Shown piece after piece: positions 31,143-33,466 of a DNA stretch of 64,000 bases. Origin of the DNA: Burkholderiales bacterium (GTDB taxonomy: Bacteria; Pseudomonadota; Gammaproteobacteria; Burkholderiales; SG8-41); contig DASWHI010000117.1 in the NCBI GenBank assembly GCA_036398235.1, forward strand, positions 588 to 64,587, in the 5' to 3' direction. Each line of letters opens with the position of its first letter. The first letter of the stretch is position 1. Made by a program: the position numbers and the translations under genes. Under the pieces are notes generated by a model. The model had not been told where the DNA came from and ran no database searches. It saw only the letters and a list, made by a program, of their open reading frames with translations.

Positions 31143-31379
31143 CCTCTTCGTTGTCCCAGATCTTGGCAAACGCCGGCTCGGCGGCGCGGGCGGCAGCGCG
31201 CACTCCCGCGCGCTGCCCGTCCCGGGTGCGCAGAAAATCGACGAAATCCTCGACCTCGGCCACCCGTTCCGGGGGCAGGTTCTTGAGTTTCTCGATAATC
31301 GTGTGCGGATCTCTGGTGTTCATGCTACAGCCGTCAATGTAAACCAGATGTTGATAATTCTACTCCCTGACTGGAAAAT
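31084..31379. repeat. ~296-bp direct repeat, copy 1 (antitoxin gene, 5' end of toxin gene, TA promoter region)
   Basis: Aligns by eye with 34712-35008 over its whole length, with scattered substitutions. Confidence 0.85.
31120..31323 (-). CDS. type II antitoxin (DUF2281-like, ...LPPERVAEVEDFVDFL...)
   Basis: 67-aa ORF directly upstream of, and overlapping, the MazF-like gene. The acidic C-terminus [12 protein letters not shown] is typical of this antitoxin class. Confidence 0.65.
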   Translation of the reverse strand: MNTRDPHTIIEKLKNLPPERVAEVEDFVDFLRTRDGQRAGVRAAARAAEPAFAKIWDNEEDAAYDKL

Positions 31380-31396
31380 GCGCCTCAAGTTACGGG

Positions 31397-33466
31397 GTGA
31401 ACCTCTTCCGGGCTATGGGGGCATCGCCTACTGCCGGCTCGATCACGGTCACCATCAGCGGCAACAGCCTGCCGGTGGTCGCCTCGGCGACACGGATATC
31501 GGGGGCGGACACTTCGGGGGCGAATGGCAGCGGGGCGATCGAGGCGGTGGCAACGGAAGCCGGCCCCCCCGTCACCGATGATCGCAACATGAAGGTCGAG
31601 ATCACGACGCTCTCGAATAACGCGCGCGCCTATGCCGCCGGCACCCATCGGCTCGCGACCTTCACCGTGCCCCCGGGAGAGAGCGCGATCTCGGTCAACA
31701 ATGTCGCGGGCGACTCGGGCGACAAGACGACGCTTTCCACCTGGTATGAGGCCGCTCCCACCCCCGGGACGGTGACCCTCGGTGCCGACAACGACCTCAA
31801 CTCCGACCGGGACTGGGCGGTCGTCGCCGTTTCCCTCCGCCCCGCGGGCAGCGCCGGGCAGGCGCTCTCCCAGAGCGAGACGGTGACGGCAAGCATCACG
31901 AGCGGGGCCTCCATCACGCTCCCCGCCTGGACGCCTGCTGCCAACGATCTCATCCTGGTGGCGGTAGCGCTCCGGGACGAGACGCGCCCGGTCGCGGTAT
32001 CGGGCAACGGCTTGACCTTTGTCGAGGTCGCCAATCTCGATAACGCCCAGAACCAGACCGGGGTCAACCTCTTCCGGGCGATGGGGGCCGCGCCTGTGAG
32101 CGGCCCGATTACGGTGACGCTTACCGGCAATAGCCTGCCCGCGATCGCCTCCGCCACCCGCATTGCCGGGGCGGACACTTCGGGGACGAACGGCAGCGGC
32201 GCCGTTGAGGCGGTGGCAACGAACGCCGGCCCGCCGGCGACCGATGATGACGACATGAAGATCGCGATCACAACGCTCACCCCGAACGCCTGGGCCTATG
32301 CCGCGGGCACCCATCGGCTGGCGAGCTTCGGCTTGCCCAGCGGGCAGATCGCGATCGCCACCAACAATTTCGCGGGGAGCTCGGGCGATACCACCACGCT
32401 CTCGACCTGGTATCAGCCTGCTGCTGCGCCCGCCACGGTTACGCTCGGCGCGGACAACGACTTGAATTCCGTCCGCGACTGGGCGGTCGTCGCGGTCTCG
32501 ATCAAACCCACCACGGGAGCGGCGAATGCCCCACCGAGCGTGGCGATCACGAGCCCGGTGAGCGGGGAGAGCTTCCAGTTCCCGGTCACCCCGATCCTGG
32601 TCAGCGCCGACGCGCAGGACGCCGATGGCACGGTCGCGCAGGTGGAATTCTTCGCGAATGGGGTGCTGATCGGGGGCGCCACCGCGAGCCCGTTCACGAT
32701 CCAGTGGTCAAACGTCGCGGCGGGGGATTACACTCTGACTGCGCGGGCGACGGATGACGCCGGTGCGCAGACGACGAGCGCGGCGGTTAATATCAGCGTG
32801 CGGGTGCCGCAGATCTTCTACATGCACACCGATCATCTGAACACCCCAAGGCTCATTGCTAACGGCGCGAGCCAAACCGTGTGGACGTGGGCGAACGATG
32901 ATCCGTTCGGGGCCAACGTCCCGAACGAGAACCCCTCGGGACTGGGGATCTTCACCTGCAACCTCAGACTCCCCGGCCAATACTTCGACAAGGAAACAGG
33001 ACTTCACTACTCGTACTACCGCGACTACGACCCTGCGATCGGACGATTCCCGCAATTCGATCCCATCGGCCTGCGAGGCGGGATCAACGGATACGTCTAC
33101 GTAGAGAACAATCCGCTGAGCTTCATCGATCCGTTCGGCCTTCAAGCCTCGGATGTGTTTGGCGGTGAGCAACCGAGAAGCCCCGTCGTCGGCTGGCCCA
33201 ACGTGAGCACGCAGGCACAGCAGAGCTTAGCGGGACAGCTTCAACGCCTTTGGAACAACATCTTTAGCCAGTCGTCCTCGAATGACGAGCTTGAGCGTTG
33301 CTATCAGGACTGTGAGGCACAGCGGAAGCGCGACCAAGACGATTGCGAGTGGTGGTGGAAGATGCGTGGTCGCAACGTGGACGACTATCGTCGATGCCAA
33401 CGGGCGGCTGACGAGCGCTTGTTGAAGTGCTACGAGAATTGCAGGAACACGTGCAAGCAAAAATGA
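31397..33466 (+). CDS. RHS repeat-associated core domain protein with an unrecognised C-terminal domain; probably 5'-truncated
   Basis: 689 aa. Residues 1-149 and 223-371 are tandem homologous copies, offset 222 aa. An Ig-like domain follows (PPSVAITSP...DADGTVAQVEFFANGVLIG...YTLTARATDDAGAQTTSAAVNISV). The RHS core reads HTDHLNTPR...LRLPGQYFDKETGLHYSYYRDYDPAIGRFPQFDPIGLRGGINGYVYVENNPLSFIDPFGL. A 107-aa Cys-rich tail ends the protein. GTG start in mid-repeat; no signal peptide. Confidence 0.7.
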   Translation: MNLFRAMGASPTAGSITVTISGNSLPVVASATRISGADTSGANGSGAIEAVATEAGPPVTDDRNMKVEITTLSNNARAYAAGTHRLATFTVPPGESAISVNNVAGDSGDKTTLSTWYEAAPTPGTVTLGADNDLNSDRDWAVVAVSLRPAGSAGQALSQSETVTASITSGASITLPAWTPAANDLILVAVALRDETRPVAVSGNGLTFVEVANLDNAQNQTGVNLFRAMGAAPVSGPITVTLTGNSLPAIASATRIAGADTSGTNGSGAVEAVATNAGPPATDDDDMKIAITTLTPNAWAYAAGTHRLASFGLPSGQIAIATNNFAGSSGDTTTLSTWYQPAAAPATVTLGADNDLNSVRDWAVVAVSIKPTTGAANAPPSVAITSPVSGESFQFPVTPILVSADAQDADGTVAQVEFFANGVLIGGATASPFTIQWSNVAAGDYTLTARATDDAGAQTTSAAVNISVRVPQIFYMHTDHLNTPRLIANGASQTVWTWANDDPFGANVPNENPSGLGIFTCNLRLPGQYFDKETGLHYSYYRDYDPAIGRFPQFDPIGLRGGINGYVYVENNPLSFIDPFGLQASDVFGGEQPRSPVVGWPNVSTQAQQSLAGQLQRLWNNIFSQSSSNDELERCYQDCEAQRKRDQDDCEWWWKMRGRNVDDYRRCQRAADERLLKCYENCRNTCKQK

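Follow-up and report, generated by a model that had tools for sequence, protein, structure and literature searches.

The cocoon of Tc toxins, formed by TcB and TcC, is an Rhs-type shell whose two polypeptides have separate genes, the second one carrying the toxin. Orphan C-terminal (CT) toxin regions of rhs and cdiA genes, paired with immunity genes, usually lack initiation signals, and their immunity genes are functional and expressed (PMC3150448). C-terminal displacement gives rise to such orphan modules (PMC2935791), and their reloading onto the main gene was demonstrated experimentally (PMC3967940). Internal promoters drive the expression of the Salmonella rhs toxins, an orphan included, and these toxins act as type II toxin-antitoxin (TA) modules (PMC7043789). 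Here we describe a 5'-truncated rhs open reading frame (ORF) and a candidate immunity gene directly downstream of it, found in a 64,000-nt stretch of contig DASWHI010000117.1 from an uncultured Burkholderiales bacterium (hereafter the window; coordinates are counted from its first letter). We consider it probable that the ORF is a stranded orphan toxin gene of a two-gene Rhs system, accompanied by its immunity gene, and that the toxin can no longer be deployed.

The frame is on the forward strand, opens at 31358 directly after the stop codon TAA 31355-31357, as the first-pass annotation of the window had it, and stops at 33464-33466. It contains two in-frame starts, GTG 31397 and ATG 31415, so that the GTG is not the only start, as had been thought; the public gene callers pick the ATG and obtain a protein of 683 amino acids (aa; P0001). 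No Shine-Dalgarno-like sequence precedes either of them, unlike the native starts of the homologous genes in contigs L002 and L005, which have AGGGAG/AAGGGG 4-5 nt upstream. The gene and its partner have the following parts:

31397..33466, + strand: 5'-truncated toxin gene, 689 aa from GTG 31397 or 683 aa from ATG 31415
31397..31843, + strand: partial domain unit 1, 149 of 212 aa, the first 63 aa being absent
31874..32509, + strand: complete domain unit 2, aa 160-371, all-beta, no Pfam family
32534..32743, + strand: Big_7 bacterial immunoglobulin (Ig) domain, aa 380-449 (Pfam PF17957, 1.1e-16)
32810..33142, + strand: Rhs core, the last ~110 shell residues (TIGR03696, NF041261)
33143..33463, + strand: predicted variable C-terminal toxin domain, 107 aa (from homologues at Rhs C-termini and a model)
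33489..33752, + strand: candidate cognate immunity gene, 87 aa; it has an ATG of its own, preceded by a GAGAG box

The core scores 82.1 bits against TIGR03696 (cutoff 32.5) over aa 502-582 and covers positions 1156-1261 of 1261 in NF041261. It ends with ...DPIGL...IDPFGL, past which the C-termini of P0002, P0003, P0004, P0014, P0022, P0025 and P0051 all differ from that of the window ORF. Pfam gave no RHS_repeat match in the ORF. Pfam, NCBIfam and hydropathy agree with the earlier statement that it carries no signal peptide, PAAR, VgrG-binding or two-partner secretion (TPS) domain.

The 5' end of the gene is defined by its homologues and by its own internal repeat. Positions 31393-31692 are 78% identical to 32059-32358, and blastn extends this match to 31827/32493. 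The homology to the second unit thus starts at the junction, and the beginning of the second unit has no upstream counterpart, both as claimed at first. The DNA homology to L002, L004 and L005 likewise begins exactly at 31393 in all three comparisons (blastn). Alignment with full-length homologues, which had been proposed as the way to define the missing N-terminus, gives a loss of 287-299 nt of coding sequence, i.e. 96-100 codons (three homologues), with a Sec-type signal peptide in the upstream part. The N-termini of the full-length proteins P0002 (811 aa), P0003 (794 aa) and P0004 (580 aa) are basic, then hydrophobic, resembling Sec-type signal peptides, and are followed by the start of the unit (..TVTGSITSG..LPAWTPAPNDLILVAVALRDETR..NGLTFVE..). 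Their 12-residue hydropathy maxima are 2.1-2.7, compared with 1.24 in the window ORF. Searched against the window, the N-terminal 110 residues of the homologues matched unit 2 only, and no second copy of the 5' end was found. Judged from these alignments, the lost part is a predicted Sec-type signal peptide together with the first 63 residues of the 212-aa beta-sandwich domain.

The complete unit was modelled with AlphaFold2 (AF2) as an all-beta domain of 15 strands (predicted local distance difference test score, pLDDT, 96.7), in which the 63 residues absent from unit 1 form the first 5 strands. The fold gave nothing significant against the PDB (best E 8e-3, template modelling (TM) score <0.3), and against BFVD it matched uncharacterised Caudovirales proteins and mycobacteriophage minor tail proteins (TM 0.6-0.77, probability 1.0). 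At the sequence level the domain is widespread at the N-termini of phage-like proteins. We infer a role in surface binding and regard the unit as a candidate new domain family. The unit is also found fused to S8 peptidases, metallophosphatases and MshQ-like proteins.

The truncation could in principle be an artefact of assembly, a chimeric join at the repeated TA sequence described below, with the real gene being full-length. The junction does adjoin a 307-nt repeat, at which some contigs end (L001, L030). However, it sits 14 nt outside this repeat and is spanned in several contigs assembled by ENA with MEGAHIT, by JGI and from Logan unitigs (L026-L029, L032, L044, L051, L052, L057). Independent assemblies from ENA, JGI and Logan agree on this junction at 99.9-100% identity. 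An artefact is therefore exceedingly improbable, and we take it as confirmed that the truncation belongs to the genome.

The genes from which the window copy derives have an unusual organization. It is intact in a 17-kb JGI contig, L039 (L039:3403-8741), where the first gene encodes a 1138-aa protein with DUF6531 and 11 RHS repeats, ending with ...KEYIYLGDIPVAVIQ*. The second gene starts 143 nt downstream and encodes 500 aa with a signal peptide, CBM96, Big_7, the Rhs core and the CT, and the third is an 86-aa ORF, 82% identical to the product of window 33489-33752. A second toxin-gene copy follows, an orphan that begins within CBM96 and has another CT plus a small ORF; after it come a further fragment and a Y1 transposase. 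A YD ORF ending with PVAVIQ* stands 35-143 nt upstream of the full-length gene in all four loci examined (L002:1-2707, L004:1105-3913, L005:1-1839 and L039). It is also present in L036:2001-2531, and comprises only 122-176 aa in L004 and L036. In this family the shell ORF thus ends with ...LGDIPVAVIQ*, and the second ORF opens with a signal peptide and continues with one or two beta-domains (the 212-aa unit or CBM96), Big_7, the ~110-residue core and the toxin. Canonical Rhs proteins with the same CT type read through this point (..WLGDTPVAMF-x11-LYFIHADHLDTPR..). Hence, the family looks like an Rhs gene split at the linker, whose toxin half has its own export signal and binding domains. We found no description of such an arrangement in the literature searched.

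According to these comparisons, the delivery determinants that the window copy has lost are a putative Sec signal peptide and a separate upstream YD-shell ORF, and not PAAR, VgrG or TPS elements. It was noted earlier that the 64 kb contain no genes of a type VI secretion system (T6SS), CdiB or Tc toxins, and Pfam scans of the 41 called genes bear this out (no PAAR/VgrG/Hcp, CdiB/TpsB or TcA/TcB). Since the lost determinant is a signal peptide with a shell ORF, the absence of T6SS or contact-dependent inhibition (CDI) genes is uninformative. The sole Omp85 protein in the window is BamA in its usual rseP-bamA-lpxD context. Neither a YD-shell gene (tblastn with the L039 shell ORF) nor any other rhs-related sequence beyond the truncated gene was found in the window.

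The CT has 26 representative homologues, all of them at the C-termini of Rhs proteins, with the alignment beginning only past the DPxGL motif. It belongs to no Pfam family and has no fold match in the PDB (best E 3.3). Its seven cysteines are arranged as C-x3-C ... C ... C ... C-x3-C-x3-C, four being invariant and two more nearly so across the homologues, and its AF2 model is a helical hairpin of ~55 aa (helices 48-74 and 79-106, pLDDT >90). We suggest that the CT is a hairpin stapled by disulfides or metal and suited to the extracytoplasmic space, which fits the signal peptides found on all its full-length relatives. The CT of the window is 78% identical to that of the full-length gene in L039. 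The 87-aa ORF behind it has five homologues with 81-86% identity, and in L039, L040 and L041 these come immediately after a CT of this type or what is left of one. The CT is 78% identical and the ORF after it 82% identical in both L039 and L040, and in L041 an 86%-identical ORF follows an out-of-frame CT remnant, a gene layout that L042 shares. This conserved pairing makes the 87-aa ORF the candidate cognate immunity gene. The GC content is 57% in the CT and immunity gene, 62% in the insert that contains them and 66.5% in the flanks.

Truncated copies like that of the window are common in the family, judging from sequence comparisons. In P0022 and P0025 the truncation falls at two further places in the unit, and the gene before each of them is an unrelated one for a membrane protein; among the CT homologues, many are short ORFs made up of core and CT. 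The longer homologues, the conserved toxin/immunity pair and these other truncated copies support the original proposal of an orphan or decaying toxin cassette.

The sequence immediately upstream of the rhs-derived DNA raises the question of whether the remnant is expressed. It comprises:

31351..31389, + strand: first 39 nt of a conserved ~52-nt TA-linked motif, cut off at 31389 (promoter scan; recurrence)
31390..31393, unstranded: junction, three unassigned bases (tta) and then rhs-derived DNA from 31393 (blastn; motif alignment)

The motif reads TTGATAATTCTACYCC-N6-GGAAAATGCGCSTCYAGRRGAAAATTCY and occurs, besides window 31351-31389, in L053, L054, L055, L056, L058 and L035. Its neighbours are DUF2281/MazF modules in several contexts, an IS66 transposase and an unrelated PIN-type TA module; it stands beside TA modules in four contexts other than the window and had no matches in viral contigs. 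A promoter scan gives a sigma-70-like match, TTGATA-17 nt-GAAAAT, at 31351-31379, directed towards the rhs ORF. In five contexts, the window included, the two hexamers are conserved, and the variable 6 nt fall in the spacer. For the TA genes on the minus strand no promoter was found in 31324-31395, either convincingly by eye or in the promoter scan.

It can be supposed that the truncated gene is expressed from this outward promoter, starting at GTG 31397 or ATG 31415, and that a cytoplasmic toxin and its immunity protein form an internal TA pair serving addiction or growth control. The conserved hexamers, the intact 689-codon frame, the immunity gene directly behind it and the precedent of the Salmonella rhs toxins (PMC7043789) speak for this. 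A second, independent case of a TA module with the motif and a 5'-truncated Rhs core fragment is seen in L055, where the TA module is of the PIN type. On the other hand, there is no Shine-Dalgarno sequence at either start, the leader would be only ~10-28 nt long, and the first domain is without 5 of its 15 strands. The seven-cysteine hairpin with its twin C-x3-C motifs and the signal peptides of the relatives suggest folding outside the cytoplasm, and the conservation of the motif could reflect the regulatory region of the TA operon itself. We consider such expression as an internal TA pair improbable. A broader proposal is that TA modules with the ~52-nt motif are mobile units, landing pad and promoter in one, which take up cargo through recombination at the conserved start of the toxin gene and are repeatedly fused to beheaded Rhs genes, so that toxin and immunity genes are transcribed as an intracellular addiction or immunity unit. 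The fusion is seen twice, with two unrelated TA types (window and L055). We give this proposal little credence as well.

The ORF lies within a 4.2-kb insert between the start codon of ppsR and ppsA, bracketed by an exact 27-nt direct repeat. The 26-nt core of this repeat has two exact matches in the window and none in 100 shuffles, and the preceding t matches too. The remaining features of the insert are:

30760..30786, unstranded: left copy of the 27-nt direct repeat, tGCGGGGCCGCGCCATCGGTGCTGCCT, including the first five ppsR codons
30795..31142, - strand: complete mazF/pemK-type toxin gene, 115 aa (PemK_toxin, 1.2e-15)
31120..31323, - strand: A-type antitoxin gene, DUF2281 / VapB-like, 67 aa (Pfam DUF2281)
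31072..31379, unstranded: TA repeat copy A, with the first ~24 mazF codons, the antitoxin and the upstream region (alignment)
33775..34143, + strand: DUF2513 / helix-turn-helix (HTH) gene (Pfam, 1.5e-26)
34443..34775, - strand: fused ORF, ~24 mazF codons (copy B) and ~85 C-terminal residues of a transposase of the IS3 insertion sequence (IS) family (NCBIfam, Pfam rve_3, alignment)
34705..35008, unstranded: TA repeat copy B, with a complete B-type antitoxin gene at 34753-34956 on the - strand (alignment)
35017..35043, unstranded: right copy of the 27-nt direct repeat, an exact match

The mazF product is identical to P0121, named PemK/MazF by NCBI in a Burkholderiales metagenome-assembled genome. 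The antitoxin gene overlaps mazF by 23 nt, and by sequence the pair has a type II TA layout of the MazEF/PemIK kind. The copy-B antitoxin allele gives a weak, sub-threshold match to NCBIfam TA_VapB. The DUF2513 gene is absent after the immunity gene in L039 and is not part of the toxin/immunity cassette of the other loci; ~300 nt of non-coding DNA separate it from the IS3 remnant. The latter matches positions 315-369 of 369 in NCBIfam transpos_IS3 and Pfam rve_3 on the public gene calls, and its in-frame fusion to mazF is an internal IS breakpoint, not an IS end. A BLAST search of plasmids for it gave only 61-nt matches, and its identity stops at the IS3 family.

The TA repeat copies are ~90% identical (31072-31379 vs 34705-35008) and share an identical run of 54 nt at the start of mazF (31090-31143). 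The alignment places the repeat end at 31379, in line with the first-pass annotation, which had also held that the TA module is duplicated, that the ORF appears truncated exactly at the edge of this duplication and that the rearrangement which duplicated the module may have cut the gene. These claims hold in part. The repeat is real, but copy B is an antitoxin with ~24 mazF codons fused to an IS3 remnant, not a whole module; the truncation is real as well, but the rhs cut lies 10-14 nt beyond the repeat edge, inside the motif. Homologous recombination with a diverged TA allele accounts for the apparent duplication better than does the event that cut the gene.

Two contigs carry other alleles of this region. 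L035 (Logan SRR3989297) agrees fully with the window across ppsR and in mazF as far as the 54-nt run, past which come an antitoxin allele of a third type (~75% identity) and another downstream gene. L034 (ENA ERZ27254792) switches from the A-type to the B-type sequence inside the 54-nt run and does not have the 3.6-kb segment. Three antitoxin alleles are thus joined to the same mazF/ppsR sequence, and the switch is always in the 54-nt run; the TA module looks like a hotspot of recombination whose cargo on the antitoxin side varies. The Logan contig L051 is exactly as long as the repeat period (3,633 nt). An excised circle was considered for it and rejected, because its ends fall where a k=31 unitig between the two copies of the 54-nt run would end.

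Hence, we suggest the following course of events. The cassette would have come in a 3.6-kb piece of foreign DNA together with the DUF2513 gene, the IS3 remnant and a diverged MazF/DUF2281 TA allele. Homologous recombination in the 54-nt run may have inserted this segment at the TA module resident between ppsR and ppsA, leaving two partial copies, and the same recombination could remove it again. The cut in rhs is a separate, illegitimate junction inside the promoter-like motif next to the incoming TA allele. In comparison with the intact loci, the window copy no longer has a shell ORF, ribosome-binding site or signal peptide, and its first beta-domain is short of the initial 63 residues. Any product would be expected to stay in the cytoplasm with a beta-sandwich that is unable to fold, and would therefore be unusable as a weapon. 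What probably still counts is the 87-aa immunity gene, which could protect against neighbours that deploy the same toxin type, and the DNA of the cassette could serve as a substrate for recombination.

The last of these roles might even be the main one, with the cassette kept as a reservoir that, through homology in the unit, Big_7 and core region, replaces the 3' end of a full-length paralogue elsewhere in the genome and switches its toxin/immunity type. Such a role is compatible with a stranded orphan. About 1.7 kb of the cassette is 74-80% identical at the DNA level to full-length genes up to the DPxGL boundary and not at all beyond it; full-length homologues were found in the same metagenome samples (L003 and L029 in ERZ27256989; L005 and L033 in 3300037518); and reloading of a main rhs gene from an orphan has its experimental demonstration (PMC3967940). 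However, no full-length paralogue has been shown to belong to the genome of the window, an identity of 74-80% is low for efficient homologous recombination, and the cassette is isolated in a housekeeping region. We therefore see the reservoir as a possible but rather unlikely main reason for its maintenance.

Several observations weigh against the stranded, undeployable orphan that we favour. The 689-codon frame is wholly intact with no sign of decay yet, and the ORF is 99.9-100% conserved in every assembly carrying it, with one non-synonymous difference (32619, D->G). The conserved sigma-70-like match ends 18 nt before the GTG, and with GTG and ATG in frame the ORF may be transcribed and to some extent translated. 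The copy is not downstream of a main rhs gene, unlike classical orphans. When the ORF was searched against 185,579 GTDB species-representative genomes, all matches were to Big_7, and neither the window organism nor a close relative turned up among these genomes. Finally, the insertion-free allele is represented by the single 1,070-nt contig L034, which could be an assembly chimera, and an exact search of JGI metagenome contigs for its junction found no counterpart.

The surroundings of the insert are a housekeeping stretch of the chromosome, as seen from Pfam scans of the called genes, and every other Pfam-matched called gene in the window is a housekeeping gene. To the left the order is dapD, smc, rpsB-tsf-pyrH-frr, bamA-lpxD-lpxA-lpxB and ppsR, and to the right ppsA-pyrG-kdsA-eno, lepA, era and uvrC. 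The two genes that flank the insert are:

29951..30776, - strand: ppsR, phosphoenolpyruvate (PEP) synthase regulator, left flank (Pfam Kinase-PPPase, 5.8e-80)
35112..37505, + strand: ppsA, PEP synthase, right flank (Pfam PPDK_N / PEP-utilizers on public gene calls; translation)

The ATG of ppsR (30776-30774) falls within the left direct repeat. The gene now starts 18 nt past the mazF stop, severed from its former upstream region (35044-35111), and is probably co-transcribed with the TA operon. Elsewhere in the window a 108-nt element is present twice (40186-40293 and 46738-46845, 96% identical), with perfect 17-nt terminal inverted repeats (CTAGTGCCGTTCCAACT ... AGTTGGAACGGCACTAG), resembling a miniature inverted-repeat transposable element (MITE). 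Both copies are intergenic, one after kdsA and the other after the gene of a 1176-aa oxidoreductase. A 105-nt intergenic repeat (24833-24937 and 27333-27437, 81% identical) contains a C-rich/G-rich hairpin; one copy is upstream of lpxD and the other downstream of lpxA. Neither this repeat nor anything else in the window matched an Rfam family.

By itself the locus matters little, being one more orphan toxin/immunity cassette among remnants that are common. Its annotation should flag the ORF as a 5'-truncated remnant, not as a working 'RHS repeat-associated core domain protein'. Its context exposes an Rhs family in which the shell has one ORF and the toxin another, exported separately by Sec, the latter combining phage-tail-like or CBM96 binding domains with cysteine-rich helical-hairpin toxins. 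It also offers a worked example of a chromosomal TA module acting as a homology anchor for foreign cargo that enters, and possibly leaves, a housekeeping intergenic region, and of the spread of immunity genes away from any toxin locus.

The parent family of the window gene resembles the Tc toxin TcB-TcC (for context, see PMC7861908) in that the shell is made of two polypeptides with the toxin on the second. However, TcC accounts for much of the repeats, and TcB/TcC attach to TcA, whereas the second ORF of the parent family has only the last ~110 shell residues along with its own signal peptide and binding domains, and there is no TcA.

The window copy itself is closest to the orphan rhs-CT/rhsI and cdiA-CT/cdiI modules of Enterobacteria (PMC2935791, PMC3150448, PMC3967940). 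Like them it is 5'-truncated but retains part of the conserved region, has a DPxGL-type boundary, a variable CT and a small immunity gene, has a GC content below that of the host and lies near IS fragments. As to the initiation signals that those modules usually lack, no Shine-Dalgarno-like sequence is present in the window copy, but GTG 31397 and ATG 31415 are in frame. Unlike them, it stands alone between housekeeping genes in a TA-bracketed insert and not in an array, retains a beta-domain, the Ig domain and a short core in place of YD repeats, and comes from a parent gene that is Sec-exported, not T6SS-linked.

With the orphan Rhs of Salmonella Typhimurium (PMC7043789) it shares the loss of the delivery part, the pairing with an immunity gene and a nearby promoter that may transcribe it. 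Here, however, the CT is cysteine-rich and derived from signal-peptide proteins, and the MazF/DUF2281 TA module is a separate neighbour.

Canonical single-polypeptide Rhs proteins, P0262 (985 aa) and P0265 (763 aa), carry the same cysteine-rich CT and share the core ..FIHADHLxTPR..NLRxPGQYxDxETGLxYN..DPIGL..DPxGL with the window ORF. What sets the window family apart from them is that a stop, a signal peptide, one or more beta-domains and an Ig domain are inserted at the linker, which makes two ORFs of one.

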